A DNA stretch of 64,000 nucleotides, from positions 3,824 to 67,823 of the forward strand of contig PAVS01000017.1 of the NCBI GenBank assembly GCA_002713145.1, read 5' to 3'. The translations under genes and the position numbers were made by a program. Below, piece by piece: positions 1 to 62,636 of this stretch (its first letter is position 1; each line of letters opens with the position of its first letter). The DNA is from Halobacteriovoraceae bacterium (GTDB lineage Bacteria; Bdellovibrionota; Bacteriovoracia; Bacteriovoracales; Bacteriovoracaceae). The notes under the pieces are model-generated. The model was not told the origin of the DNA, did not search any database, and was given only the letters and a program-made list of their open reading frames with translations.

Positions 1-394
1 CAGTGCTACTTTTTACAATGACATTTTTAAGCATAAAACGAAAAACATAAAGCAAGTTCAGAACTTTTATAAAAGAGACACACTTATCATTACTCTTATC
101 CTTATGCTTATTGCGTTTATTGCTTCCAATAGCGAAGAGCTACTATTATTTGGCCTAAAAATTACATCATGGACAGCAGGATCTCTGCTTGCAGTATTTT
201 TCAGTGTTGTTATATTTAGATTTGCAAAACTGAGAACTTGGAATGTGGTGATGGCCTATATATTTGGTGCCCTCGGTGTTTATGCGAATACATTTCTCAT
301 CGAATGGGATTGGAATTTCAACGTCTATATCGGATTTAGCCTAGGCCTATTGGCCATATACATCACTGAGAAAATCTCAAGTAGAAATCACTGA
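1..394 (+). CDS. 3' end of a polytopic membrane protein, possibly a solute symporter-type transporter; the 5' end lies outside the window
   Basis: The frame of the 104..394 ORF stays open back to base 2 with no stop, so the gene is cut by the window edge. The tail has several helix-length hydrophobic segments ([62 protein letters not shown]). The family is a guess. Confidence 0.4.
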
Positions 395-2121
395 GACTGT
401 TCTGCTAATAACTCTTTGGGTACACCTTTAGGAATCGCCGCTAAGAGTTTTTTCGTGTATTCCTTTTTAGGATTGAGATAAACATCGTTCGCAGGATCAA
501 GCTCGACAAACTCACCTTGATTCATCACAGCCACTTCATCAGAGATAAAGTTAACCACAGAAAGATCGTGAGAGATAAAGATATAAGTGAGGCCAAACTC
601 AGCTTGTAAGTCTAATAAAAGATTGAGAACTTGCGCTTGAACTGACACATCAAGAGCAGAAACTGATTCATCACAAATGATAAACTCAGGGTTCACGGCC
701 AGTGCTCGAGCAATACATATTCTTTGCCTTTGTCCACCGGAGAATTCATGAGGATAGCGGGATAATTGATTACCACTTAGCCCAACTTTTTCCATGAGCC
801 ACTTTGCTTTTTCAATTCGCTCTGATTTATTAGCTCCGATATTATGCAAATTCATGGGTTCAAGTAAAATTTGTCCGATCGTCATTCTCGGATTGAGTGA
901 AGAGTATGGGTCTTGGAAAATGATTTGCATTTTCTTTCTCATATTTCTCAAGCCATCTTTATCAAGAGCTGTCACATCAACGCCATTATATTTCACCTGA
1001 CCACTGGTTGGCTCAATGAGCCTGAGGATAGAGCGACCCAAGGTGGTCTTTCCACATCCCGACTCTCCAACGAGTCCTAGAGTCATCCCCTTTCTGAGTT
1101 TAAAAGAAACTCCGTTCACGGCCCTAAAGTGATCCACCACTCGCCCAAAGATTCCACCTTTAATAGGGAAATGTACATGAAGATCATTCACTTCTAAAAG
1201 AACAGGATTTTTCTCTTCAGTGAACTCAAAAACTTTATCAACTTTAGTCAGTTTTTTTTCTTCAATTTTTATCTCATTTCCTTCTTTATCCATAAAGTCA
1301 CTTACCGTAAGTAAACGCTCAGGATTTTTATCTAAAGCAGGACGACACGCAAGTAAACCTTTCGTGTACGGATGGGTCGCATGAGTAAAGATTTTTTTAC
1401 ATGTATTTTGTTCCACAAGATTAGAACGGTACATGACGACGACATCATCTGCTATATCAGCAATAACTCCAAGGTCATGAGTAATAAAAAGCATACCCAT
1501 TTCATATCTGTCTTGAAGTTCAAACATAAGATCAAGAACTTGTTTTTGAATGGTCACGTCAAGAGCTGTTGTCGGCTCATCGCAGATAAGAAGTTTTGGC
1601 TCACAAGCAATAGCGATTGCGATCATCACTCTTTGCTTTTGCCCTCCACTCATTTCATGAGGATATTTATGAGCAGATCTTGCAGGGTCAGGAATCCCTA
1701 CTTGGTTAAGCAGTTCAACTGATCTCTCCCAGGCTTCTTTTTTATTCATACCTTTGTGAATTATGAGAGACTCTGATATTTGATCACCAACCTTAAAGAC
1801 AGGGTTGAGTGAAGTCATTGGCTCTTGAAAGATCATCGCAATATCGTTTCCGCGAATCTGACGCATTTTAGCTTCGCTAATTTTGGTAAGATCCTTACCA
1901 TCAAACATAATTTGTCCGCCAGAAATGATTCCAGGAGGATTAGGTATCAATCTCATCACAGCAAGAGAAGTAACTGATTTACCAGAGCCCGACTCACCTA
2001 CGAGGCCAACTGTTTTTCCCATGGGTACATCAAATGAAATCCCATTCACGGCACGAACAAGTCCCTCCGGGGTATGAAAATCAACTGTTAAATCTTTGAT
2101 ACTTAATAAAGAATCACTCAT
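388..2121 (-). CDS. Fused double ABC ATPase of a peptide (Opp/Dpp-type) transporter
   Basis: Two complete ABC cassettes are present: Walker A GESGSGKS and GESGCGKT, signatures MSGGQKQR and FSGGQRQR, Walker [13 protein letters not shown] and [12 protein letters not shown]. It is the last gene of a permease/SBP operon. Confidence 0.9.
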
Positions 2122-9867: not shown

Positions 9868-10686
9868 ATGGACGCTTACAAAAGACTATATATTGTCACT
9901 GGAAAAGGTGGAGTTGGTAAAACTTTAAATGCTCTAAGCCTAACTTCTTATCTTCAATCCCAAAATAAAAAAGCTAAGCTTGTTTTCTTTTCTAACTCAA
10001 AATTAGACCCTAAAGCAGTTGAATACAGTGAAGTTAAATTATTAGCTGATCAGGCAAATATAGATTATCTGGGACTTGAGCTCATTGAATCTTGCCGACA
10101 ATATATTGCTTTAAAATTAAAGTCTCAAACCATAGCAAGCTGGGTCATCAAAACTCCTTTCTTTAAATCTCTGGTGAATATGATTCCTGGATTTAATTAT
10201 CTTATCTATATGGGGCAAATACTCGATGATCTTAGTTCTGATCCAGATCTCATCTATGTGTTAGACTCCCCTTCTTCTGGTCACGCCTTAACTATGTTTG
10301 AGGCGACTAAAAACTTCAATAAAATTTTTAGCAGTGGTGTTCTTTATAACGACACCCAAAAGATGTTGACCTATTTGAGAATGCCTCATTTTTTAAAAAT
10401 TATTATTCTCACTCTCCCCACTTCTTTGGCCATCAATGAAGCCATGGAACTAAAAGAAAATTTAAATAATTCTGAAAATTTTGATATAGATGTGGTCTGT
10501 AACAACACATTAATGAGCTTTCAATCAGAACAACTTCCTGCCCCCATCAGGCATAAAATTGAAAATGAAGCGAAAGCTCTAGAGCAACACAAGGAAACAA
10601 TTCAACAATGTATTCCATTTTCTTTGGGAAGTAACACCCAAGAACTTATAAAAGATCTGTCTCCTTCGATGACACAGTTAGTTTGA
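9868..10686 (+). CDS. ArsA/Get3-like P-loop ATPase, short paralogue
   Basis: Deviant Walker A GKGGVGKT at the N-terminus and an ArsA-type switch motif VLDSPSSGHALTMF (compare DTAPTGHTLRLL). The usual TDPAH motif was not seen. Confidence 0.7.
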   Translation: MDAYKRLYIVTGKGGVGKTLNALSLTSYLQSQNKKAKLVFFSNSKLDPKAVEYSEVKLLADQANIDYLGLELIESCRQYIALKLKSQTIASWVIKTPFFKSLVNMIPGFNYLIYMGQILDDLSSDPDLIYVLDSPSSGHALTMFEATKNFNKIFSSGVLYNDTQKMLTYLRMPHFLKIIILTLPTSLAINEAMELKENLNNSENFDIDVVCNNTLMSFQSEQLPAPIRHKIENEAKALEQHKETIQQCIPFSLGSNTQELIKDLSPSMTQLV

Positions 10687-11747
10687 TAGGTAATAATTTG
10701 AGTATAACGAGCAAAAAATTTGAGATATTTAGTGGCACTGGTGGAGTGGGAAAAACGACTCTTGCTACTAGCCGCGCTATTGATCTTGCTAATCAAGGGA
10801 TGAGAGTTCTGCTTATTACCATAGCCCCTGCCAAAAGACTTAAAGAGCTAATGGGTCTCAATGATAGCCAAGCCGGAGAGGTCATCACTTTGAATAACCC
10901 TTTTCAAACAGATCAGGATTATTCAATAGATGTACAGCTCATGAATCCTCAAAAAACATTTGAAAGAATTGCGATCGGATCCAAATGCCCTGAAGTTCTT
11001 GATAATCGAATCCTTGAAATTCTCACCCGCCCTTATGGTGGACTCAATGAGATATTGGCTTTAGTAGAACTCAATATGCAAAGTCAGAGCGGCCACTATG
11101 ATACTATCGTTTTAGACACACCTCCGGGGAGTCATTTTTTAGACTTTCTGGATAGTGCCCAGAGAATCAATGTCTTTTTTGACCAATCATTTATAGATAT
11201 TTTTAATGTCGTAGGCAAAAAGCTTGATACGTCATCTTTAAACTTTGGTAAGAGAATCTTCAATAAAATTGTCTCAAGTGGAGTCAAAAAGCTTTTAGGT
11301 TACCTCAATAAAGTGACGGGTGAGAAATTTGTCGAAGAGTTTATAGATGCTATTGTTGCGATTTATAAAACAAAGTCTTCTTTTTTAGATGCTCTTAACT
11401 TAGAAAAAAGACTTAAAAACCAAAAAGAAGCTAATTGGTATCTTGTGACCAGTGTCGAGCAAAGCAAAGTTAAAGAAGCACTCGAGCTCCTTCAACAAAC
11501 AGAAGGTGTCATGAGTGAGCATTCTTACGTTATTATTAATAAATGCCTTGAAGAGACATTAGATAGCTGGGAAATAAGCTCTGAGAGCAAACTTTCAAAC
11601 CTCAAAGAAACACTTATTCAAAAAGAAAAAACTATAAAACATCAATTGAAACCTCATTTTCAAGCAGTTCTAGAATTTCCTGAGATAATAAGTTTATCTC
11701 CTGTTGATCATATAAATGAGCTTGTATTAAATTGGAAAAAAATTTAG
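10683..11747 (+). CDS. ArsA/Get3-like P-loop ATPase, long paralogue
   Basis: P-loop GTGGVGKTT and switch motif VLDTPPGSHFLDFL. Its TTG start overlaps the upstream paralogue's stop by 4 nt, indicating translational coupling. Confidence 0.7.
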   Translation: MIGNNLSITSKKFEIFSGTGGVGKTTLATSRAIDLANQGMRVLLITIAPAKRLKELMGLNDSQAGEVITLNNPFQTDQDYSIDVQLMNPQKTFERIAIGSKCPEVLDNRILEILTRPYGGLNEILALVELNMQSQSGHYDTIVLDTPPGSHFLDFLDSAQRINVFFDQSFIDIFNVVGKKLDTSSLNFGKRIFNKIVSSGVKKLLGYLNKVTGEKFVEEFIDAIVAIYKTKSSFLDALNLEKRLKNQKEANWYLVTSVEQSKVKEALELLQQTEGVMSEHSYVIINKCLEETLDSWEISSESKLSNLKETLIQKEKTIKHQLKPHFQAVLEFPEIISLSPVDHINELVLNWKKI

Positions 11748-37967: not shown

Positions 37968-40310
37968 CTACATTATGGCGTTATTCTCTAGATTTGAGGA
38001 CCTAGAGAGCTGTGAATGATCCTCATGAGCCTGATCCGCTTCACTGATCTGCAAAATATTTTTTTGGAGATTTTGATGAGCGAAATATAAATCTTGCAGC
38101 GAGCTTATAATTTCACTTTCTTGAGAATGAATCATCTCACTCATATTGATTTTTTCAACTCGACTCAGCTCAGATTGAGAGTATTGAACTTGTGAGAGTT
38201 CATACTCATCATTAATTTGGATAATTTTTTCTTGGCCGCTAGATACAATCATATGAGCTTTACTCATTCCTATCTCGAGACCAGAGACCTTACGGTCTAG
38301 TTCTTCACTTTGACTCATTAAAGATTCAAAAGCCCCGGACAATTTATTCATCTGTCCAACTAGCTTTTGTTCCCCTTTGGACTCGATCACTTTTTTCAAC
38401 TGGGTGATCTCAGAAGCGAGTTTAAGTTTAAGCTCAGCTTGAGTTTTTTTACTCGCCTTCATTTCCGCTTTCATTTCATCAAAACTAGGAAGTGAGTTGG
38501 CCATCTCAAGGGTGGTCGAGCGTAAATTTCTCACCTTTGTGGAACTTGCTTTAAGAGCAGCAATATTAGTGCATATAAGTTCACGACTTCTCTCCAAACT
38601 AGACATAAGTGTTTTAGCTGCCTCCGAGAGCCCAATCACATTGGTTTTGAAGTTTTTCAGCGCCACTTTTATAGTAGAGAGTTCAGCCTTACTTGCATCA
38701 TTGGTGGCATAAATAGAATCTACAATTTGGCCTAGCTTATCATACTCAAACTCTTGTCCTTTGAGTTTAGCGATAAGTTCATTTTCACTGTAGTAAATAT
38801 TCTCGTTGAGGGCGATGAATTTTTCATACACATCTTCAATACCTGCAATTTTAAACTCGTATTCCATCTGCTCGTTGGCCACAAAGTCCCCAGCGATAAT
38901 ACTATCAACACTCTTTTTAACTGGATTAAGGATGCTTTTTGATTGGTCTTTGATGGTTTCTTCTAAATTAGTTAAGTCGTAGAAGTAGAGCATGATCTTG
39001 GTTTCGTCATTGACTTGAATAGGCGAGACAAACATTTCATAAGGCCTAGCCTCAATATCATCATTTGCTTTCATCTGAATTTGATAGATTCCGGCAATAT
39101 TATTTTTAAGAGCTTCCATGATAGGGTCATCGCTCCCAATATTTGTGAGTTTGTTAAGATAGTCCCACGACATGTATTCTTTTTTAATTTCTTCTTTGGT
39201 GATTTGCCAATCGTCACAAAATTGAGCATTGGCCCACATCACTTTGAGGTTTTTATCCAACATGATGCTGGCAAAAGGAAGACTCTCTTGAAAGATTTTT
39301 CCAAAGCTCATTCTCTTCGCTATATAGCTGGCCATGCGGTTTGAATAATTTTTAAAATCTTCATTTGAGTCAGCATAGACACTTGCATCACATTCTAAAA
39401 TTCCCAAAGATAAATAGTTCTCAATATCTTGTTCTAATTTTATTTTAGCGGAACGGAAATACCATCTGTTAAATAAAAAACTCATGAAGAATAACACCGT
39501 GACCAACCCTACGATCCCAAGCATTGCCAACATATACGTTTTACCTAATTCTTGATTTTCAATTTTTCCCATGGTGATTTCTGGGGAGACTTTCGCCAGC
39601 CAATTTTGAACGGAGTTTTCAAAACGCGAAAAGCGAGTATCAAAACGATCTCGAGCCTGAGAGAATTTCGAGAGCATGATCATTTCTGTTTTTAAGTTTT
39701 GAATACGGCTCACTATTTCAGCTTTATCCGCACGAGAGAGCACTGAGTTTTCAGTGATTTTTATCATGCTTTCAAACTCGCGCAATACACCTTTTGAAAG
39801 CGCCCCTAATTTTTCTTTATTAATATGGCCTGAAACTTTTGAAAGAATTCTCTCACTCATACGTGTTAAAGTTCTCCACCTATTCTTTTGAACAAATTGG
39901 TGGAACTTTCCGATTTTCCCTCCAAAGATCATAAGCACTTTATCACTTCGAGTGAACCGTATCAGTTTACTTGCTTCACTTTTAAGTTTCTTAGCATTGG
40001 TTTGAACATCTTCAAACTCTTCTACTTCTAATATTTCGTGAACGCTTGAGAGATCAGCAGTGATACGATCAATTTTATCAATCGCTTTTTTAGGAGTCTC
40101 CACATGAATAAGTTCTTGGATATCTTTTAATGAAGTTTCTTTGCCATAGTTTTCTAAAACAAAACTAGCTTTATGTACATTTTGAATTCTTGAGCCATCG
40201 ATAAAACCTGATTTCCAAAAATAGAAAACCGTGCCTAATGTGACCAGTACTAAAAGAACAAAAGCAGTTTGATAAACTTTGGTAAGTCTTGAGAAGAGTC
40301 TTTCAATCAT
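37968..40310 (-). CDS. Two-TM membrane protein with a PAS-like domain and a long C-terminal coiled coil; no recognisable output domain
   Basis: TM helices VLLVLVTLGTVFYFW and LAMLGIVGLVTVLFFMSFLF. A PAS-like block reads FASIMLDKNLKVMWANAQFCDDWQ...MLYFYDLT. The C-terminal ~300 aa is heptad-rich. Confidence 0.55.
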   Translation of the reverse strand: MIERLFSRLTKVYQTAFVLLVLVTLGTVFYFWKSGFIDGSRIQNVHKASFVLENYGKETSLKDIQELIHVETPKKAIDKIDRITADLSSVHEILEVEEFEDVQTNAKKLKSEASKLIRFTRSDKVLMIFGGKIGKFHQFVQKNRWRTLTRMSERILSKVSGHINKEKLGALSKGVLREFESMIKITENSVLSRADKAEIVSRIQNLKTEMIMLSKFSQARDRFDTRFSRFENSVQNWLAKVSPEITMGKIENQELGKTYMLAMLGIVGLVTVLFFMSFLFNRWYFRSAKIKLEQDIENYLSLGILECDASVYADSNEDFKNYSNRMASYIAKRMSFGKIFQESLPFASIMLDKNLKVMWANAQFCDDWQITKEEIKKEYMSWDYLNKLTNIGSDDPIMEALKNNIAGIYQIQMKANDDIEARPYEMFVSPIQVNDETKIMLYFYDLTNLEETIKDQSKSILNPVKKSVDSIIAGDFVANEQMEYEFKIAGIEDVYEKFIALNENIYYSENELIAKLKGQEFEYDKLGQIVDSIYATNDASKAELSTIKVALKNFKTNVIGLSEAAKTLMSSLERSRELICTNIAALKASSTKVRNLRSTTLEMANSLPSFDEMKAEMKASKKTQAELKLKLASEITQLKKVIESKGEQKLVGQMNKLSGAFESLMSQSEELDRKVSGLEIGMSKAHMIVSSGQEKIIQINDEYELSQVQYSQSELSRVEKINMSEMIHSQESEIISSLQDLYFAHQNLQKNILQISEADQAHEDHSQLSRSSNLENNAIM

Positions 40311-40429: not shown

Positions 40430-41215
40430 CTAGATAGCTATATCTTCGTGTGATTCGAAATCGTTTTTAAGTTTGGCCTTGAGTTTAAGTATGGCCTGTG
40501 TATGAAGTTGAGACACTCTGGATTCAGTCACATCCAGTACCTGACCAATTTCTTTAAGGTTGAGATCTTCAAAGTAATAAAGGGATAAAACTAATCTTTG
40601 TTTCTCAGGTAATGATTTAATACCATCTCTTATGATTGACTGTGCTCTTTTGTAATTCACAGCAGAAAAAGGATTTGACGATCTTCTATGCTCAAGAAGT
40701 CCCATCATAAGCTTTTTGTCTCCACGACTAAATGTCGTTGAGTCGTCAATATTTAATAGAGACACTGACTTAGACTTGTTGATCATTTCATGGAACTCTT
40801 CCATAGAACACTCAAGCTCTGCGCACATCTCATCATCAGTTGCCGGTCTACCGAATTCTCGCTCTAACTTAGCGTAAGCTTTCTCAAGAGTCTTACTCTT
40901 TTCACGAACTGATCTAGGAACCCAATCTTGTGATCTTAGTTCATCAAGAATTGCCCCTCTTATTCTAAACTCAGCATATGTTTTAAATTTATTATCTCTC
41001 GTTGGGTCGAACTTTGAAATGGCATCCATAAGTCCGATAACACCGCATGAAATTAAATCATCAAGCTCAATATTAGCTGGTAATCTAGCCGCAATTTTCT
41101 GAGCAATGAAGCGAACGAGTGGAGCGTACTCAACGATAATCTCGTCCTTAACCTTAGGATCCATAGTACATCTATAATCTTTGAGGTTTTTTAATTTGGC
41201 GGTTAGTGAAGACAT
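40430..41215 (-). CDS. fliA: Flagellar sigma factor FliA (sigma-28)
   Basis: Group-3 sigma-70 family. Region 2 reads YAPLVRFIAQKIA...DLISCGVIGLMDAISKFD, and region 4.2 reads LNLKEIGQVLDVTESRVSQLHTQAILKLK. It is the last gene of the flagellar export operon. Confidence 0.9.
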   Translation of the reverse strand: MSSLTAKLKNLKDYRCTMDPKVKDEIIVEYAPLVRFIAQKIAARLPANIELDDLISCGVIGLMDAISKFDPTRDNKFKTYAEFRIRGAILDELRSQDWVPRSVREKSKTLEKAYAKLEREFGRPATDDEMCAELECSMEEFHEMINKSKSVSLLNIDDSTTFSRGDKKLMMGLLEHRRSSNPFSAVNYKRAQSIIRDGIKSLPEKQRLVLSLYYFEDLNLKEIGQVLDVTESRVSQLHTQAILKLKAKLKNDFESHEDIAI

Positions 41216-41225
41216 GAGCTACTCC

Positions 41226-42128
41226 TTAAGCGTTTAAGTTATTGAACGTCGTGTTCAACTTCTCCAAAGGAAAGATTTCCGTTGGTACAATTGGTCTGCC
41301 TAACTCTTCGGTTAGCCTTCCCACCACTTTAAGAAAGTTTCGCTGTAGGTCATTTTTGCCGGTTGTATCTAAAAAATACTTATCGAATTTGTTTTGAGAG
41401 ATATCAACTCTCTTCACCCCTCCTAGGATGCGTGTACGGCAACCTAAAAAGTTTTCTACTGTTTCACTTAATGTGCTCACTACTTTTTCAAATTGAGCTG
41501 GAGTTCTATATTTATTAACAAGAAGATGGTTTTCTTTAATACCAAATTTTTGTGAAAGTACTTTTATCAGAGAGTAAGAATCTGTAATGCTGGCCTTATC
41601 TGGAGTCACCACGACCACACGGTAATCGCAATAAGCATTTAAAGTCAGTGATTCTCTTTGAATTCCTGCGGGACAATCAAGAAGAATGAAATCATACTCT
41701 CCTTCATGCTCATTGATAATATCAATAATAAATTCTTCCATTCTCATTTCACGGTCAAACATATCAACATTACCGTTACAAGCAGAAAGAAGGTGAAAGT
41801 TTCCATCTTGATATAGGCATTCTTCAAATGATTTTTCGTTGGTTATAAGTGAGTAGAAATTATTAGTCAGGGGAAGATCAAGTTTAATCGAAGTGTTTGA
41901 TAAATTATAATCGCAATCAATCAGAAGCACTTTAGAGCCTTCCGCTGCAAGCTCTTTGGCAAATTTAAGTGAGATAGAAGTTTTTCCTACTCCACCTTTT
42001 CCACCTGTGATTGAAATCGTTGTTGTTTTGTCTTGTTGTTGTTTTCTTTCTGTGAGTAAGTGATGTACTTGTCGCTGGTAACTTGAATTAAACGAAATCA
42101 GCCAATCGCTTGTCTTTGTCATAAACAT
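41226..42128 (-). CDS. flhG: MinD/ParA-type ATPase FlhG (FleN/YlxH)
   Basis: Deviant Walker A GGKGGVGKTS and LLIDCD, positioned between flhF and fliA. No N-terminal DQAxxLR-type activator motif was seen. Confidence 0.8.
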   Translation of the reverse strand: MFMTKTSDWLISFNSSYQRQVHHLLTERKQQQDKTTTISITGGKGGVGKTSISLKFAKELAAEGSKVLLIDCDYNLSNTSIKLDLPLTNNFYSLITNEKSFEECLYQDGNFHLLSACNGNVDMFDREMRMEEFIIDIINEHEGEYDFILLDCPAGIQRESLTLNAYCDYRVVVVTPDKASITDSYSLIKVLSQKFGIKENHLLVNKYRTPAQFEKVVSTLSETVENFLGCRTRILGGVKRVDISQNKFDKYFLDTTGKNDLQRNFLKVVGRLTEELGRPIVPTEIFPLEKLNTTFNNLNA

Positions 42129-42186: not shown

Positions 42187-43650
42187 TTAAAGCTGAAACA
42201 ACCCAGCTAGTATTCTTTCACTCGTTGCCGCTTCAACATCATCAGGTACGACAGGACCTGTGCCAAAAAACTTGAGAGGTTGCTTCTTAAACTCATAGCT
42301 TAAGTTAACCAACGAACCAAAATTTAGGCATTGATCTACATATGAAATTATAACACCGTTAGAAAATTGATCATACTTGGAAAGAATTTTACTGTTGTAA
42401 ACTTCCGCATGTATCGCAGAAATAGTGGTAAGGATTTCTACGTTATCAAATGATCTTCTTAGGGTTTCTATAAATTTTTTCGTCTCATCAACTTGAGAAA
42501 AATTTAATCTCAAATCCACGACGACTGATCTTTTTTCAGTCGTGGCTTTCCGAATCTCACTCATCAGATGGGCAAGAGTGGCCACAACACTTACGTCCAT
42601 ATTAAACATGGTTTTTGTAAAATCAGATTTATAATCAGAAGTTGTATCTCTGAACTGAATCATTTTTATGTCATCTTGAATAACAGAGAGCTTGGTCGCC
42701 ATTGAGGCTTGACCGCAAGAAGTTTCTGAAACCAAAACGGTAATGACAGGTGCCCCCTCTTCTTGTACGCGGGAGAAAAGTGGCATATCAACATTGATTT
42801 GCTCATTAATTTCTCTCAGAGCAAAATCATAGAGCATATCCGCATCATCGAGTTCTTCTCTCGTAAACTCAAAAGATGCTTTTTTAATAATCTCAACAAT
42901 AATGGCTTCCTTGAGAGAAAGCGCTCTTAGTGAATTTCTAAGGGATAAAATACCTCTTGGCTCAGAGTGAGCAGGTGATCCTGACACTTTCTGAGTCAGT
43001 TCATATAATTTTTGTTCTAAGAGTTCAATTTGGTGAGATTGAGTTTTGACTTGGTTTTGTAATTCATGAGAAAGCTCATTGGCATTACGAAGCTTGCTCT
43101 CAATTTCAGCTCGCTCTTCGTGATGATTATCTTCCACAGCTTCCACTGGTCTGCGAGGCGACTCCGTTCTTTGAGCAGTTGGTTTTTCCATAAATTCATC
43201 AAAATTTCTTTTAGAAGTATGCTGTGCTTGCTCTTCTTCTACCGCCAAAAAATCATCAAGTGAAGACATTAATTTATGACTTGCTTTTGAAACAGTGTTC
43301 ACCACTTTGTTAAGACCCATATTGCCATATCCACCATGGCCTGGCCCAGATGTTTCTTCTTTGGGCTGAGTGTTTGTAGAATAATTATCGATCATGTGAT
43401 TGATCGTTGTTGAAGGTGCTTGATAAAATTTCTGTCTCTGGTCTTCATTAAGGACATGATCGACCTTAGCTTTTTTCGTATAGTTTTGTTCTGAAATAGC
43501 TGCGGTAATTTCAACTCTCGACTTTTTAAAAGCTCCTTTAAGCCCTTTATTAGTCAATGTTTTTAGAATAATCGCGTCAGGTCCAAGTTCCCTTTTCACC
43601 ATTTGGAGCGCTTCATCTAAACTTTCACCTTCGAATTTTTGTACATACAT
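42187..43650 (-). CDS. flhF: FlhF homologue with substituted GTPase motifs
   Basis: The N-terminus MYVQKFEGESLDEALQMVKRELGPDAIILK is the conserved FlhF B-domain start. The gene lies between flhA and flhG. The G1, G3 and G4 equivalents read SETSCGQAS, DLRLN and SYVD instead of GPTGVGKTT, DTAGR and TKLD. Confidence 0.75.
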   Translation of the reverse strand: MYVQKFEGESLDEALQMVKRELGPDAIILKTLTNKGLKGAFKKSRVEITAAISEQNYTKKAKVDHVLNEDQRQKFYQAPSTTINHMIDNYSTNTQPKEETSGPGHGGYGNMGLNKVVNTVSKASHKLMSSLDDFLAVEEEQAQHTSKRNFDEFMEKPTAQRTESPRRPVEAVEDNHHEERAEIESKLRNANELSHELQNQVKTQSHQIELLEQKLYELTQKVSGSPAHSEPRGILSLRNSLRALSLKEAIIVEIIKKASFEFTREELDDADMLYDFALREINEQINVDMPLFSRVQEEGAPVITVLVSETSCGQASMATKLSVIQDDIKMIQFRDTTSDYKSDFTKTMFNMDVSVVATLAHLMSEIRKATTEKRSVVVDLRLNFSQVDETKKFIETLRRSFDNVEILTTISAIHAEVYNSKILSKYDQFSNGVIISYVDQCLNFGSLVNLSYEFKKQPLKFFGTGPVVPDDVEAATSERILAGLFQL

Positions 43651-43653
43651 TTT

Positions 43654-45717
43654 CTACACCCTCACCGTCCCTAAGGATCTTATATTAACTTCCGAGCTTA
43701 ACTCGTTATGACTGACAACAATTAAGTTCGGGATAAATTTTTCTGTTAATCTTTTGAAATGTCTTCTGACAACAGGTGAACACAAGACAATCATCTTCTC
43801 ACCCATATTGGTGGCTTCTTCGATGCGCTCGTTAAGACTTGCTAAAATTGTCTGGGTTAATTGCGGATCCAAAGATAACTCCTGCCCTTTTTCAGTCTGA
43901 ATAATGTTTTGGGCAAGTGCTTCTTCTATTGATCGGTCCAAAGTGAATAAGGGAACATCTCCTTGATCACTTTTGACTTTTTCTGTAATTGTTCTATACA
44001 GCGCTTCCCTGGCCATTTCAGTCAGACTATCCGTGTCCTTAATTATTGTACCATGCTCAGCAAGAGATTCAAGAATTGTTCGCATATCTCTAATAGATAC
44101 AGACTCTCTCAATAAATTCTGTAGAACCTTTAGTACAGCCCCGAGAGGTAAAATGTCAGGTACTAAATCATCTACAATCTTAGGGTATTCCTGTTTAAAG
44201 TTATCAAGTACACCCACCAACTCTTGTCTTCCAAATAATTCATGTAAATTACTCTTGAGTATTTCAGTTATATGGGTGGCTATGACAGTTGAGAGATCCA
44301 CGACAGTATAGCCGTTATACTGAGCATCATCTTTAAGATCTTCACTGATCCAAACAGCATCTAAGCCGAAGACTGGTTCAGTGGTTTGTACCCCTTCAAT
44401 TGGCTCAATGACAGTACCTGGATCCATGGCCAAGAAGTGATCACTCATCAGCTCAGCACTGGCCACTTCAATTCCTTTAATGCGAACTGAATAGCCCCCA
44501 GGTTTAAGTTCTAAATTATCGCGAATTCGAATAGAAGGAATGATGATACCCCAATCGGTTACAAATTGTTTTCTTATATGTGAAATTCTTTCTAGTAAAT
44601 CACCATCTTGTTCACTATCTACAATATTCACTAATCCATAACCTACTTCTAGCTCGATCATCTCGAGGTTGAGTAGATCTTCAAGGTTTTCATTAGTATT
44701 TTTCTTCTCCTCAATTGCTTCCATTTTTTCTTGAGCCTGCTCCATCTCTTTTCCACGCTCAATCCTAAACGCTATAAAGGCAAGAGTGGATGAAATCATC
44801 ACAAAAGGAAGAACAGGGAAACCAGGGATAAGAGAAAATAAAAAGATCACACCTGCTGTAATATAAAGCGCTCTTGGGTTTAGTGAAAATTGCTGGGTGA
44901 GTTGGTCGCTTAGCCCTTCATCACTTTGGTTTCGAGTGGCAATAATACCAGCAGCCGTAGAAATAATAAGAGCAGGAATTTGGGCCACAAGTCCATCACC
45001 TACAGTGAGTAGAGTGAAGACTTCAGTTGCTTCTCCAAAGCCCATATCTTTTTGGGCCATACCAATAATAATCCCACCAACGATATTGATGGCGGTAATA
45101 AGAATACCTGCGATAGCATCCCCGCGCACGAATTTACTGGCACCATCCATACTCCCGTAGAAATCAGCTTCTTGGGCAACTTCTTGACGTCGTTGTTTAG
45201 CCTCTACATCGTTGATAAGCCCAGCATTAAGATCGGCATCAATCGCCATTTGCTTACCTGGCATCGCATCGAGTGTGAATCTTGCAGCGACTTCAGCAAC
45301 CCTTCCCGCACCTTTGGTAATAACGATAAAGTTGATGATAACAAAAATGATAAAGATAATGATACCGACGGCGAAGTTACCTCCGACAACATAATCACCA
45401 AACGCTGCAATAATATCCCCAGCGGCAGCATCCTGTTCCCCTCCTCTAATAAGAATATTTCTCGTGGAGGCAATATTCAGTGAAAGCCTAAATAATGTCA
45501 CAACAAGAAGAACGGAAGGAAAAGTTGAGAAGTCTAACGGTTTTTTAATATAAACACTGATCAGAAGTATAGCTATGGAGCCGGCTAAAACCGTGGAGAT
45601 AAAAAGGTCCATGAAAAAAGGACTGACTGGAACAACCATAACCCCTAGGGTAAGAAGTAAACCTACCGCGATAGCGAGGTCTGAATTCTTAGCAAAGTCT
45701 TTAAATTTTCCAAACAT
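43654..45717 (-). CDS. flhA: Flagellar export gate protein FlhA
   Basis: FHIPEP family, with VAEVAARFTLDAMPGKQMAIDADLNAGLI. It has an N-terminal polytopic domain and a large cytoplasmic C-domain; 687 aa. Confidence 0.95.
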   Translation of the reverse strand: MFGKFKDFAKNSDLAIAVGLLLTLGVMVVPVSPFFMDLFISTVLAGSIAILLISVYIKKPLDFSTFPSVLLVVTLFRLSLNIASTRNILIRGGEQDAAAGDIIAAFGDYVVGGNFAVGIIIFIIFVIINFIVITKGAGRVAEVAARFTLDAMPGKQMAIDADLNAGLINDVEAKQRRQEVAQEADFYGSMDGASKFVRGDAIAGILITAINIVGGIIIGMAQKDMGFGEATEVFTLLTVGDGLVAQIPALIISTAAGIIATRNQSDEGLSDQLTQQFSLNPRALYITAGVIFLFSLIPGFPVLPFVMISSTLAFIAFRIERGKEMEQAQEKMEAIEEKKNTNENLEDLLNLEMIELEVGYGLVNIVDSEQDGDLLERISHIRKQFVTDWGIIIPSIRIRDNLELKPGGYSVRIKGIEVASAELMSDHFLAMDPGTVIEPIEGVQTTEPVFGLDAVWISEDLKDDAQYNGYTVVDLSTVIATHITEILKSNLHELFGRQELVGVLDNFKQEYPKIVDDLVPDILPLGAVLKVLQNLLRESVSIRDMRTILESLAEHGTIIKDTDSLTEMAREALYRTITEKVKSDQGDVPLFTLDRSIEEALAQNIIQTEKGQELSLDPQLTQTILASLNERIEEATNMGEKMIVLCSPVVRRHFKRLTEKFIPNLIVVSHNELSSEVNIRSLGTVRV

Positions 45718-48664: not shown

Positions 48665-49771
48665 CTATTGCAAAGGTTTAAGGTCTTTAACTTTCTTTTT
48701 TATTTGATCTGAAAATTTCACTTTATCTTTGATAGGCTCATAACTAGAAAGAGCCGCTTTGGCATTTGACTGAGTGATATCTTCTTTTAGTTTTATTTTT
48801 GAATCGATGGTTTCATCTTCGTCTGCCAGAGTAAGTTTGCTGTCAAAATTGTGACCCGAAAGAGCTTTCTCTCCAGCTTTAAAAAGCCCTGCTGCATCTT
48901 TGATCTCTGAGATAGGATGAATTCCTTGATCTGTATTACTGACTAAAAAGACCTGATTATGGGCTTTGATCAACATAAGGCTCTTTTTGGGAGCGATATA
49001 TGTTTGTGAAACAACTGTAATCTGATCTGTGTTATTCAAAAATCCAAGTTTCCCTTTTTTGATCACACCCTTTTTCATAAGAGTAATGACTCCATAAAAT
49101 AAAAGGAGAACAACTCCAAGAAAAGCCACAAACTTCCCACCATATTCAATCAGAGAAAAGTCACCTTTTTTGCTTTGTCCTAAAAGTCTAGGGCCATTGG
49201 TTGCTGCCAGTTTTGTGTTCACCTTATCTTGTGCTGTCTTCGCATCTACTGCTTTTTCTGCAGGCTTCTCTACTTTCAGCAGTTGATTGAGATAATTCTC
49301 ATCTAAGTTTTCTTTTTTAACAGTTTCTTTTTTTGGCTGAGTAATTTTTCTATATTTTGGAGCTTTCGCCATCTTCACTGCCACTCGAGGAAAAGAGAGA
49401 TCAATTTTATTATCTCTAAAGGTAAGATTGACGTAATCTTTTTTAGCCTGAGCATTAAAAGGAAGAGTGATTTTAATTTTTGAATCAGACTTAGTCGTTT
49501 GATAAGCCTTCAGGCTAGTATCTCTTAACTTTGAAGAGAAACTAACCGAACGCTCTATAGTATTACTCACCTCTGAGTTAGGTATAATGACTTGAATCGT
49601 TTTTCCTACGACAGACATCTCTGGTTGTGATCTCATTTGACCATCATACTGAATAGAAACTGTTCCTCGATGAGCAGTCTTTTTAAAGTCTAATCCTTTA
49701 ATGGTGACCTTTGCTTGAGAACTAAAACTCATGAGTAATGTTAATGTCGTAAGTAAAACTAAGTTTTTCAT
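48665..49771 (-). CDS. fliO: Enlarged FliO-like protein with an N-terminal signal peptide and an AMIN-like periplasmic domain
   Basis: It occupies the fliO slot between fliN and fliP. It has one TM helix (FVAFLGVVLLLFYGVITL) followed by the FliO-like ITVVSQTYIAPKKSLMLIKAHNQVFLVSNTDQGI. The start was chosen at MKNLVLL (49771); the ORF opens at 49810, inside fliN. Confidence 0.6.
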   Translation of the reverse strand: MKNLVLLTTLTLLMSFSSQAKVTIKGLDFKKTAHRGTVSIQYDGQMRSQPEMSVVGKTIQVIIPNSEVSNTIERSVSFSSKLRDTSLKAYQTTKSDSKIKITLPFNAQAKKDYVNLTFRDNKIDLSFPRVAVKMAKAPKYRKITQPKKETVKKENLDENYLNQLLKVEKPAEKAVDAKTAQDKVNTKLAATNGPRLLGQSKKGDFSLIEYGGKFVAFLGVVLLLFYGVITLMKKGVIKKGKLGFLNNTDQITVVSQTYIAPKKSLMLIKAHNQVFLVSNTDQGIHPISEIKDAAGLFKAGEKALSGHNFDSKLTLADEDETIDSKIKLKEDITQSNAKAALSSYEPIKDKVKFSDQIKKKVKDLKPLQ

Positions 49772-49784
49772 ATTGCCTCTATTT

Positions 49785-50165
49785 TTATTTAAGTGTTTCA
49801 ATTCTCTCAAGGGGGCTGATGATATCAGTCAGTCTGATTCCGAATTTTTCATTCACAACCACCACTTCACCTCTTGCAACAAGTTTGCCATTTACGAGAA
49901 CTTCCAGGGGCTCACCTGCAAGCTTGTCCAGCTCTAAAACTGAACCTTGTCCTAATTGAAGTAAATCTTTAATAACCACTTGAGCTCTTCCTAGCTCCAC
50001 ACTTACTTTAAGTGGAATATCCAAAATAAAGTCTAGGTTTTGAACTTTGAGCTTATTAAGAGCGTCGTCACCTGTTTTAATCTGGTCAGCAAGAGATGCA
50101 ATCGCATCTTGTTGATTCTGATCCATTGGAGTTACATTTGATTGATCTTGATTGTTCTCTTCCAT
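49785..50165 (-). CDS. fliN: Flagellar motor switch protein FliN
   Basis: SpoA domain: VELGRAQVVIKDLLQLGQGSVLELDKLAGEPLEVLVNGKLVARGEVVVVNEKFGIRLTDI. Confidence 0.9.
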   Translation of the reverse strand: MEENNQDQSNVTPMDQNQQDAIASLADQIKTGDDALNKLKVQNLDFILDIPLKVSVELGRAQVVIKDLLQLGQGSVLELDKLAGEPLEVLVNGKLVARGEVVVVNEKFGIRLTDIISPLERIETLK

Positions 50166-60578: not shown

Positions 60579-61511
60579 TTAAAATCCACCGCCGAAGCCA
60601 AAACCTAGATTAACTCCCAGGTTAAAGGGTGAATATCCAGCATTGTATCCACCGCCGCCGAAACCGCCGTAGCCACCGTAACCGCCGCCGCCACCAGCGT
60701 AGCCTGCGTAATTCATCTGAGCTTGCCCCACTTGATTAGCGAGAGCCGCTTGTTGGTAATAGCTTCCAGCTTGTAGTGAAGCCTGGTTAGACATATGTGA
60801 GTTTTGAACCGCCCAAAAACCATTTTGACCATTCACACTATTATTCCAATATGACCCACCTTGTGGGAAACCTGCTTGACCATTCCAGCCACCAAAGCCA
60901 CCGTTTCCACCATAGTATCCACCGTAGCCGCCATTATAAGGGTAACCACCAAAGCCACCTTTACCGCCACCAAGACCAAAGCCTATATTAAGACCTCCGC
61001 CGTAGCCAGGCATGCCAAAGCCTCCACCTCCGAAGCCTCCATAACCAGCCCCTGGACAAGGAGCTTGAATACACATCACCCCTCCATTTCCGAAGCCGCC
61101 GTTACCAAAGCCACCGAAACCGCCATATCCTGGTGCAGGCATGCTAGTACCGAAACCACCATACCCTGGCATTCCAAATCCTCCAGCTCCAGGCATTCCA
61201 CCTCCAAAGCCAGTATTAAGTCCAACTCCAACTCCGAAACCACCACCTGGCATTCCAAAGCCACCGCCTCCCATTCCAGGGAAGCCACCCATTCCAAATC
61301 CTCCACCATAAGGTCCTGCTAATCCTCCATAAGGATTTCCAAAACCTGCCGAGGCATTAAAGTATGGATTATATCCTAGACCTGGCCCGTACATGCCCCC
61401 TAAGAAACCTCCGGTGTATCCACCTGAAGTCCATGGGTTTCCGAAACCGCCATATCCGTTTCCAAAATAACCATTCCCAAATCCAGCATAGCCACCAAGA
61501 CCATAACCATT
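60579..61511 (-). repeat. Glycine-codon-rich low-complexity coding repeat region
   Basis: Degenerate reiteration of GGN-TTY/TAY-GGN units produces spurious ORFs in other frames on both strands (60797, 60861, 61076, 61400). Confidence 0.8.
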
Positions 61512-62636
61512 GCACTCCGGTGGTATAACCTCTCTATCTGGTAATTCATTGCCTGAAATATATCCATATGTGGCGTCCACATAATGAGTTTGCATCATTC
61601 GACATTGCTCAAAACCAGTAGCTGCTGCCCCGGCCCAAGCTTCATTGGAACCTAGATAAGCATTGGCCCAAGCTTTTTGTCCCATATACCCCATGACTGG
61701 AGGAAGGACAGCGCCTGCCACTTCAGCGACCCCACCGAGAATTCCTCCCCAGTCGGTTCCTGATTTTTGTTCACGGTAGCGAACCTGACAGTCAGCACAG
61801 TTAACGATATCTCCTGTGCGAGTCATGATCACGCCATATCTAGCTCCTAAACATTGGTTTAAATCTCTATCTGAACTACAAGCAGCGAGCATATCTTCAA
61901 CGGATAAACCACCTCGAATACTCACTCGTGGACCTCCATCAACATAAACTCTGCGAGAACCATTCCCCTGATCGATATCGTTACCTACGACCCAATCAAT
62001 ATCCGACCCTCTCACTTCTGCTCTTCTACATTTACTTTTTAAATTGCCATTAGAATCTAAACAGATTCTTTGATATTCAGAACCACCCACAGTGATTAAA
62101 TTACCATCAACATAAATTTGATCCCCTCTTCTAAAAGGACCTAGATCTATATAAAAGCCTCCGCCAGATCCGCCGGAAACTCCACCTGATCCCCCGCCAG
62201 GACCACCTTCCCAGCCTTCACGATCAGCTCTTCGGCCGAGTTCAATAAGTCTTTCTCTCTCTTCAGCATCACCGATTATTTCTCTCTCCGCTTGGTCAGC
62301 AATTTGCTCTGTTGTTTGCAACTGAACACATTCTCTTTTCCAAGCACCAACATAAGCTCCACTTGAGCCTCGTTGTAATTCAATTCCTTCGGCGATACTC
62401 ACACCTTCATCAACATTCGCCGTGGCATAAACACAACGAACACGAATACATCTTTCCGTTTCTGAGGTTGATATATGTTCTCTTTCTGAAGTGTTACCGG
62501 GTTGTCTTAAACAAGCGGCCATTAAATCATTAACCGCGCTATCAACCCTCTGGTCCGCATTTTCGGCAAGTGCTAGACTTGGAATTGCTCCCATGAGCAA
62601 TAGTAACGTTAGAGTTTTTGAACGAATTCCCATCAT
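60579..62636 (-). CDS. Secreted protein with a Cys-rich N-terminal domain and a ~310-aa Gly/aromatic low-complexity C-terminal region
   Basis: Signal peptide LLLLMGAIPSLALAEN, with 12 Cys in residues 40-375. Residues ~376-685 are GGFG/GYGG/GMPG repeats ending LGVNLGFGFGGGF. An AGGTGA RBS lies 5 nt before the ATG, and the coding GC content is conspicuously higher than neighbouring DNA. Confidence 0.75.
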   Translation of the reverse strand: MMGIRSKTLTLLLLMGAIPSLALAENADQRVDSAVNDLMAACLRQPGNTSEREHISTSETERCIRVRCVYATANVDEGVSIAEGIELQRGSSGAYVGAWKRECVQLQTTEQIADQAEREIIGDAEERERLIELGRRADREGWEGGPGGGSGGVSGGSGGGFYIDLGPFRRGDQIYVDGNLITVGGSEYQRICLDSNGNLKSKCRRAEVRGSDIDWVVGNDIDQGNGSRRVYVDGGPRVSIRGGLSVEDMLAACSSDRDLNQCLGARYGVIMTRTGDIVNCADCQVRYREQKSGTDWGGILGGVAEVAGAVLPPVMGYMGQKAWANAYLGSNEAWAGAAATGFEQCRMMQTHYVDATYGYISGNELPDREVIPPECNGYGLGGYAGFGNGYFGNGYGGFGNPWTSGGYTGGFLGGMYGPGLGYNPYFNASAGFGNPYGGLAGPYGGGFGMGGFPGMGGGGFGMPGGGFGVGVGLNTGFGGGMPGAGGFGMPGYGGFGTSMPAPGYGGFGGFGNGGFGNGGVMCIQAPCPGAGYGGFGGGGFGMPGYGGGLNIGFGLGGGKGGFGGYPYNGGYGGYYGGNGGFGGWNGQAGFPQGGSYWNNSVNGQNGFWAVQNSHMSNQASLQAGSYYQQAALANQVGQAQMNYAGYAGGGGGYGGYGGFGGGGYNAGYSPFNLGVNLGFGFGGGF

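Follow-up and report, generated by a model that had tools for sequence, protein, structure and literature searches.

A candidate pseudo-GTPase form of the flagellar placement protein FlhF across the class Bacteriovoracia

The 64,000-nucleotide stretch of DNA analyzed here (the window; contig PAVS01000017.1, positions 3,824 to 67,823, of the Halobacteriovoraceae bacterium assembly GCA_002713145.1) carries a flagellar export and regulation block composed of fliL, fliM, fliO, fliP, fliQ, fliR, flhB, flhA, an flhF open reading frame (ORF), flhG, and fliA (Table 1). The flhF ORF, which is the subject of this report, occupies the slot between flhA and flhG, upstream of fliA, both in the window and in the related loci that we fetched, and an flhG-type ORF with a GKGGVGK[ST] motif follows it directly in 78 of 80 related loci. 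An initial annotation of the window had identified the product as an FlhF homolog from its N-terminus, a C-terminal sequence block, and its position in the order flhA-flhF-flhG-fliA, and had proposed that it is a pseudo-GTPase in which the G1, G3, and G4 motifs are substituted. Its closest relatives, at 55-66% identity, come from metagenome-assembled genomes (MAGs) of Halobacteriovoraceae and Bacteriovoracaceae; the top match reaches 66% identity in metagenomes and 58% in the species-genome set.

Table 1 Features of the flhF locus, with window coordinates; residue numbers refer to FlhF.
Feature	Coordinates	Strand	Basis or remarks
flhF orthologue, candidate pseudo-GTPase	42187..43650	-	Intact ORF, 487 residues, ATG start
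FliG-interaction domain (FID), residues 1-55	43486..43650	-	AlphaFold2 beta-alpha-beta-beta, pLDDT ~83
Linker motifs GYGNMGLNK...SLDDFL, residues 106-135	43246..43335	-	In the otherwise disordered B-domain linker
N domain (helical bundle), residues ~226-298	42757..42975	-	AlphaFold2 helices 232-298, pLDDT 87-93; hhalign to canonical N domain
G-domain fold, residues 299-487	42190..42756	-	AlphaFold2 alternating beta/alpha, pLDDT mostly 82-92; Foldseek TM 0.70-0.71 to FlhF NG structures
Former G1/P-loop, LVSETSCGQAS opposite LVGPTGVGKTT	42703..42735	-	Lys to Gln, Gly to Ser, Pro to Glu, Gly to Ser
Former G2, RDTTSDYKSD opposite LDxYKVAAxDQL	42622..42651	-	Hypervariable in the family
Former G3, VVVDLRLNF opposite LIDTAGRSQ	42499..42525	-	Only Asp kept; Thr, Gly, and Arg gone
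Former G4, VIISYVDQC opposite LILSKLDEA	42328..42354	-	Lys lost, Asp kept, invariant Cys gained
Former G5/closing loop, FFGTGPVVPDDVE opposite YFTTGQRVPEDIE	42232..42270	-	Gln lost
flhA, immediately upstream of the flhF ORF	43654..45717	-	FHIPEP E 7e-268; TIGR01398 E 8e-266
flhG (FleN/MinD-type ATPase)	41226..42128	-	Pfam AAA_31, CbiA, ParA; PDB matches
FlhG N-terminal motif KTSDWLISFNS, in place of the DQAxxLR enhancer helix	42084..42116	-	
fliA (sigma-28), downstream of flhG	40430..41215	-	TIGR02479 E 1e-80

The protein falls below the curated thresholds for its own family. It scores 55.2 bits against TIGR03499 (FlhF), where the cut-off is 174.15, with a signal that is mostly N-terminal (E 1e-14), and 22.4 bits against Pfam SRP54 (PF00448), where the gathering score is 22.7 and only the C-terminal half of the domain is matched (model positions 99-195 of 196). 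Because these FlhFs lie below the TIGR03499 cut-off, NCBI leaves most of them as “hypothetical protein”; five relatives carrying that label (P0008, P0032, P0036, P0047, and P0082) are annotated as FlhF by JGI. A single-sequence search of the PDB with the ORF found no FlhF and only chance matches (E > 0.07), and a PDB search with the full-length family profile was swamped by coiled-coil matches to haemagglutinin HA2 that arise from the helical linker. When profiles built from 24 family members and from 14 canonical FlhFs are compared in hhalign, they align end to end over 451 columns, with a probability of 100% and an E value of 1.8e-47.

The AlphaFold2 model displays a confident N-terminal domain (residues 1-55), a disordered linker (residues 91-179), and combined N and G (NG) domains whose predicted local distance difference test score (pLDDT) is mostly above 85. 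Its top Foldseek match is FlhF from S. putrefaciens (8r9r, E 3.7e-11, target-normalized template-modeling score (TM) 0.71), followed by B. subtilis FlhF (2px3/2px0, TM 0.70) and then by FtsY and Ffh NG domains. At E <= 0.001 Foldseek gives 104 PDB matches, and the 50 that are listed are without exception NG domains of FlhF, FtsY, Ffh, or SRP54. The N-terminal domain corresponds to the FID, which was defined crystallographically in S. putrefaciens FlhF (PMC11236974); it is modeled with strands at residues 2-8, 27-32, and 46-52 and a helix at residues 11-21. This is the best conserved region of the protein, with a family entropy of 0.44 bits. Residues 1-80 align with the canonical FID at high confidence in hhalign, and a PDB sequence search with residues 1-67 returns the FlhF FID structure 9en1 as its sole, weak match (E 0.53). 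A long helix spanning residues 178-223 was considered as a new coiled-coil dimerization element that replaces GTP-dependent dimerization. We rejected this idea because the conserved part of the helix (residues 204-218) aligns with a helix of canonical FlhF, so that it is not a family-specific gain.

Profile alignment, predicted structure, and synteny provide three independent lines of evidence that the ORF is an FlhF orthologue by descent in the class Bacteriovoracia. The FID, the NG fold, and the gene order all agree with the identity first assigned. The register of the motifs is the same in hhalign and in MAFFT L-INS-i, which was given 23 degenerate sequences and 16 canonical ones.

In that register, none of the sequence motifs that define signal recognition particle (SRP)-type GTPases is present, be it G1 (GxxGxGK[ST]), G2, G3 (DTAGR), G4 ([TS]KxD), or G5 (TxGQ). 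At G5, GTGPVVPDDVE aligns with canonical TTGQxVPEDIE, replacing the TTGQ core with GTGP. The surviving canonical residues are the G3 aspartate (Asp379), the G4 aspartate (Asp439), the last glycine of the P-loop (Gly313), and the hydroxyl residue that comes after it. The substitutions first noticed at G1, G3, and G4 are thus seen in both alignments and extend to G2 and G5. The peptides VDLRLN and ISYVDQ lie where they had been placed, opposite IDTAGRSQ and SKLDEA, and LVSETSCGQAS is likewise present; the coordinates first given for it, 42703..42729, cover only SETSCGQAS and are corrected in Table 1. An intact GxxGxGK[ST] elsewhere in the protein had been named as one observation that would refute the proposal. 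A scan of the whole protein for GK, GK[ST], [AG]x4GK[ST], [NT]KxD, and DxxG found none of these, and the lack of any GK dipeptide excludes a displaced P-loop.

Conservation within the family was examined in the best 120 of 852 relatives obtained from a protein-database search; these come from MAGs of Bacteriovoracaceae and Halobacteriovoraceae, show 42-66% identity, and are almost all full-length. The former P-loop follows the consensus L-[ILV]-S-[ED]-x-[SA]-x-G-Q-[ST]-S, with Ser308 in 119 sequences, Glu or Asp at position 309 in all 120, Gly313 and Gln314 in all 120, and Ser316 in 110. Asp379 and a Lys or Arg at position 381 are found in every sequence at the former G3, as are Asp439 and Cys441 at the former G4. 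Gly465, Pro469, Asp471, and Glu473 are invariant at the former G5, where position 466 varies (Pro in 57, Ala in 39, Gln in 8). Mean column entropy across the G domain is 1.32 bits, compared to 0.89, 0.85, and 0.57 bits at the former G1, G4, and G5, respectively, and 2.6-3.6 bits in the former G2 region. Because variation at the former G1, G4, and G5 is lower than in the domain as a whole, the sequences indicate that the pocket is remodeled and then frozen, not abandoned. We also considered a salt bridge between Glu309 of the P-loop and Lys/Arg381 of the former G3 that would fill the phosphate site. Both charges are invariant in the close family, and the acidic residue persists in deeper representatives; the basic position there is often Asn, Asp, Glu, or His, which leaves the salt bridge unsupported.

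The same loop recurs throughout the class. A scan of one genome per species identified 80 loci, all from Bacteriovoracia, including Halobacteriovorax marinus, Peredibacter sp., Bacteriovorax sp. BSW11_IV and DB6_IX, and MAGs labelled Bacteriovorax stolpii. These 80 genomes yielded 79 FlhF ORFs, all of which carry S-[ED]-x3-G-Q-[ST]-[ST] or a near variant, which answers affirmatively the question of whether related genomes share the substitutions, and the degenerate loop also occurs in about 100 protein clusters at 50% identity. When 1.84 billion cluster representatives were searched exhaustively with HMMER, 115 matches fell below 1e-30, every one degenerate, and canonical FlhFs appeared only at E values of about 1e-27 or weaker and below about 115 bits. 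Among 118 long representatives from this search, 100 lack the P-loop lysine, 2 are degenerate with the lysine present, and 16 are canonical. Pairwise ratios of nonsynonymous to synonymous substitution rates (dN/dS) for 12 close pairs range from 0.03 to 0.07 over the whole gene and from 0.007 to 0.05 over the G domain. The substitution is fixed class-wide and under strong purifying selection, and the gene is retained, as its intact frame had first suggested.

Where the nearest canonical relatives carry a name, they are annotated as Bdellovibrionota, Bdellovibrionales, Bdellovibrionia, or Oligoflexia. These sister FlhFs (P0248, P0238, P0289, P0374, and others; ~28-33% identity, E 1e-21 to 1e-27) share the synteny of the window protein and have a very similar FID, but differ from it in keeping GPTGVGKT, DT[TA]GR, SKLDE, and TTGQ, and in having, where an adjacent flhG is present, a DQAxxLR motif in its product. 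GxxGxGKT is intact in all 112 of them (GPTGVGKT in 109), and nearly all have SKLDE and TTGQ; because no nearest canonical relative has lost the P-loop, these sequences indicate that the motif loss maps to the stem of Bacteriovoracia. Several deep-branching sequences have P-loops of intermediate appearance, namely GGPGSGTSS (P0181), GAPGSGVSS (P0212), GGFGSGQST (P0222), SGHNVGKTQ (P0197), and SEYSSGKSA (P0168). In seven other FlhFs, the P-loop is intact and G3 is decayed (P0243, DTPSPS; P0251, DTAAIG; P0253, DTVAVS; P0262, DTSGLS; P0265, DTPGYS; P0259, DLNHFN; P0267, DFPGLT), a pattern pointing to a wider relaxation of catalytic constraint in the clade; P0243, P0251, P0253, P0259, and P0267 also rank among the apparent intermediates. 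At three canonical Bdellovibrionota flhF loci (L081, L082, and L085), fliA follows flhF directly with no flhG in between, so that flhG is absent from its usual slot in some sister lineages.

In characterized systems, the N-terminal enhancer helix of FlhG carries the DQAxxLR motif, whose glutamine is co-catalytic in GTP hydrolysis by FlhF (PMC12826062, PMC11236974). The FlhG encoded in the window retains the MinD-type ATPase core with an intact deviant Walker A motif, GGKGGVGKT (41979..42002; GGKGGVGKTS), and its best PDB matches are FleN (5j1j, E 1.3e-21) and FlhG (4rz2, E 1e-16). Its N-terminus reads M-F-M-T-K-T-S-D-W-L-I-S-F-N-S. DQAxxLR is found in none of the 78 FlhGs from Bacteriovoracia loci, all of which instead contain x-x-W-L (76 by pattern matching, and those of L053 and L066 by eye). 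The consensus in the class is K-T-S-E-W-L-x-S-F, with the tryptophan and leucine essentially invariant, and in most loci it sits 24-33 residues upstream of the Walker A motif, which is the position of the enhancer helix. FlhGs encoded beside canonical Bdellovibrionota FlhFs keep DQAxxLR in all three readable cases (MDQADTLR, DQAATLR, and DQAQQLR). It is missing from all four FlhGs that stand beside intermediate or divergent FlhFs: the FlhG next to P0181 (L087) has T-x-D-W-L, that next to P0212 (L088) has no N-terminal extension, that next to P0222 (L089) has an unrelated N-terminus, and the fourth adjoins P0267 (L090). No other indirect evidence speaks as strongly for there being no GTPase reaction left to activate as this two-sided loss, of the motifs in FlhF and of DQAxxLR in FlhG. 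At two loci of sister Bdellovibrionota, the FlhG beside a canonical FlhF keeps DQAxxLR and has a degenerate Walker A motif (SGRSGVGRS at L086:5487-6398 and SNRLGAGKS at L083:7528-8355); it is FlhG, not FlhF, that looks like a pseudo-NTPase there, in a reciprocal pattern.

The B-domain linker of FlhF carries two further elements that canonical proteins lack. Y[GA]x[LIMV]GLN[KR] occurs in 117 of the 120 family members and SLDDFL in 101, and both are absent from all 112 canonical Bdellovibrionota FlhFs. These motifs may constitute new interaction sites.

The GTPase fold is thus retained under selection while the G motifs are lost, and the protein is classified as a pseudo-GTPase variant of FlhF because it is FlhF by descent yet fails G1 through G5 and the curated thresholds. 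We propose, with a probability of roughly 70%, that an FlhF orthologue has become a pseudo-GTPase that acts as a nucleotide-independent scaffold across Bacteriovoracia (Halobacteriovorax, Bacteriovorax, Peredibacter, and their relatives). The motif losses make it highly probable that this FlhF is catalytically dead; that it binds no guanine nucleotide at all is favored by the same residues with rather less assurance. In such a scaffold, the FID would still bring FliG to the pole, and the FliF/MS-ring with it. The NG fold would serve as a docking module that does not depend on nucleotide; in Shewanella, binding of the NG domain to HubP is already nucleotide-independent (PMC11236974). The on/off control normally supplied by GTP through dimerization and FlhG-stimulated hydrolysis would be replaced by a direct contact without catalysis, in which the remodeled N-terminal helix of FlhG meets the remodeled NG surface. 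This contact would be gated by the ATP cycle of FlhG, shifting the control of number and timing to that protein, and the two new linker motifs might contribute to it. This specific replacement contact is tentative, and we rate it as falling somewhat short of even odds.

Several considerations weigh against a nucleotide-free scaffold. The putative contact between the FlhG helix and the NG domain is drawn by analogy from B. subtilis. FlhF proteins of Pseudomonas and Vibrio are reported to need GTP binding for polar localization and stable FliG binding (PMC12713375), which means that a GTP-free FlhF would have to solve both tasks differently. Three residues that contact nucleotide or magnesium are also kept, namely Asp379, Asp439, and the hydroxyl residue after the P-loop Gly-X (Ser or Thr at position 315 in ~80% of members, together with Ser316), and their retention alongside unusually conserved pocket loops would be compatible with continued binding of a ligand of some kind. 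Such a protein, binding GTP or GDP non-canonically, ATP, or (p)ppGpp, would be a hydrolysis-dead but ligand-regulated switch, either a class II pseudo-GTPase or one of altered specificity. The aspartates in question are those that specify guanine at G4 and bridge magnesium at G3; Gly313, Gln314, and Gly465 are invariant as well, a Ser or Thr follows the Gly-Gln pair, and SRP GTPases are able to bind (p)ppGpp, with the PDB entries 7o9f, 7o9g, and 7o9h among the fold matches of our model. The phosphate side of the pocket tells against it, however: glutamine takes the place of the P-loop lysine in virtually every member, serine has replaced two of the loop's three glycines, and an acidic residue (position 309) stands in every one of the 120 sequences where the phosphates would lie. 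The G3 glycine and arginine, the G4 lysine, and the G5 glutamine are gone, G2 is hypervariable, and the partner FlhG has no helix with the co-catalytic glutamine. We therefore regard a ligand-regulated switch as unlikely, although it is the foremost of the alternatives.

The ORF could instead be a degenerate paralog, with a canonical FlhF encoded elsewhere in the genome performing the GTP-dependent work. This possibility draws on the extent of the DNA that was read, which amounts to 64 kb in the genome at hand and no more than 10 kb to either side in the relatives, and to that degree it too counts against a GTP-free system. It is nonetheless improbable. The ORF occupies the orthologous flhA-flhG slot in every locus and carries the best-conserved FID, and a canonical FlhF hidden elsewhere in the genome would depend on the DQAxxLR activator, which the FlhG here does not have. 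The window offers no second SRP-type P-loop: its five GxxGxGK[ST] sites belong to FlhG, to two ArsA-like ATPases, and, in two instances, to a 578-residue open frame at 388..2121. Canonical FlhFs from the exhaustive search, moreover, group with non-Bacteriovoracia Bdellovibrionota wherever they are named. Least credible of all is a sequencing or assembly error, which the initial annotation had raised for the 42.3-42.8 kb interval, or a decaying pseudogene: the frame is intact, identical substitutions recur in all 79 recovered ORFs and in the clusters at 50% identity, and the dN/dS values of 0.007-0.07 complete the refutation.

Other features of the window were recorded in passing. Directly downstream of fliA, a 780-residue protein (37968..40310, minus strand) matches no family apart from weak, sub-threshold PAS-domain hits at residues 342-450; at L087 and L089, too, fliA is followed by long proteins that match nothing in Pfam, so the position may be conserved. 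FliO (48665..49810, minus strand) is unusually long at 381 residues, of which only residues 252-307 form the FliO domain, leaving a large N-terminal extension outside it. A 685-residue protein without a Pfam match (60579..62636, minus strand) has a signal-peptide-like N-terminus and a C-terminal half of low complexity that is rich in Gly, Phe, and Tyr (GGFGxGG repeats); it lies behind a local rise in GC content (0.46, against a background of ~0.37). The two ArsA/Get3-like P-loop ATPases, with GKGGVGKT and GTGGVGKT, adjoin each other at 9868..11747 on the plus strand and are unrelated to the flagellar cluster. Scans of the whole window found no tRNA genes and no Rfam families at the gathering threshold.

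The window protein resembles the known SRP-type FlhF GTPases (B. subtilis 2PX0/2PX3; S. putrefaciens 8R9R, with the FID in 9EN1; Vibrio, Pseudomonas, and Campylobacter) in its domain order of FID, disordered B linker, N, and G, as well as in its NG fold, genomic position, and end-to-end profile homology. It differs from them in the replacement of all five G motifs, in its scores below both curated thresholds, in its two additional linker motifs, and in being paired with an FlhG that lacks DQAxxLR. Pseudo-GTPases such as CENP-M, the pseudoGTPase domains of p190RhoGAP, AAGAB, and the degenerate septins are likewise GTPase folds that remain under selection after loss of the G motifs (PMC5593906, PMC12490416, PMC10731463). 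The Bacteriovoracia FlhF is like them in presumably serving as a protein-protein interaction module. Those examples are mostly eukaryotic and TRAFAC or Ras-like, whereas this one is a bacterial NG domain of the SIMIBI/SRP type whose activator has co-degenerated. Engineered P-loop and GTPase mutants of FlhF in P. aeruginosa, V. alginolyticus, C. jejuni, and S. oneidensis show that some functions survive the loss of hydrolysis (PMC12713375), and the loss of GTP binding impairs localization or FliG binding there. In contrast to those mutants, the loss described here is natural, complete, and ancient, and the FlhG N-terminus and the linker have changed alongside it in ways that look compensatory.

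Current models center the control of flagellar placement and number on a GTP-dependent FlhF homodimer that is dissolved by the DQAxxLR helix of FlhG (PMC12826062, PMC11236974). In a primary paper from 2025, the part of FlhF described as conserved is the G domain, with its motifs G1-G5 (PMC12713375), and a 2025 review of FlhF-FlhG diversification mentions no case of this kind (PMC12826062). Our search of the searchable full-text literature for FlhF together with pseudo-GTPase or pseudoenzyme, Bdellovibrio or Bdellovibrionota, or “bacteriovora” terms retrieved nothing relevant. Within that literature, the FlhF pseudo-GTPase of Bacteriovoracia appears to be unreported. It would, as far as we are aware, be the first pseudo-GTPase of the SRP (SIMIBI) type to have degenerated together with its activator.

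We consider the chances about evenly balanced that the polarly monotrichous, fast-swimming Bacteriovoracia build and place their flagellum through an FlhF and an FlhG that have both given up the GTP switch, and that a new contact, formed by the S-E-W-L-x-S-F helix of FlhG, the remodeled former G loops, and the linker motifs, takes its place. These elements are concrete candidates for the replacement and provide targets for mutation, and the intermediates at L087-L089 could help to order the evolutionary steps. Flagellar gene inventories of Bacteriovoracia may miss flhF, as the gene is under-annotated in the class. The family offers a natural separation-of-function case that could reveal which FlhF tasks (FliG recruitment, pole targeting, and FlhG coupling) the scaffold alone can perform, which is of relevance both to the study of flagellar placement and to the evolution of SRP/SIMIBI NTPases. 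If our interpretation is correct, the GTP cycle of FlhF would not be intrinsically required for polar, numerically controlled flagellation, and would instead represent an evolutionarily replaceable regulatory layer over a scaffold.

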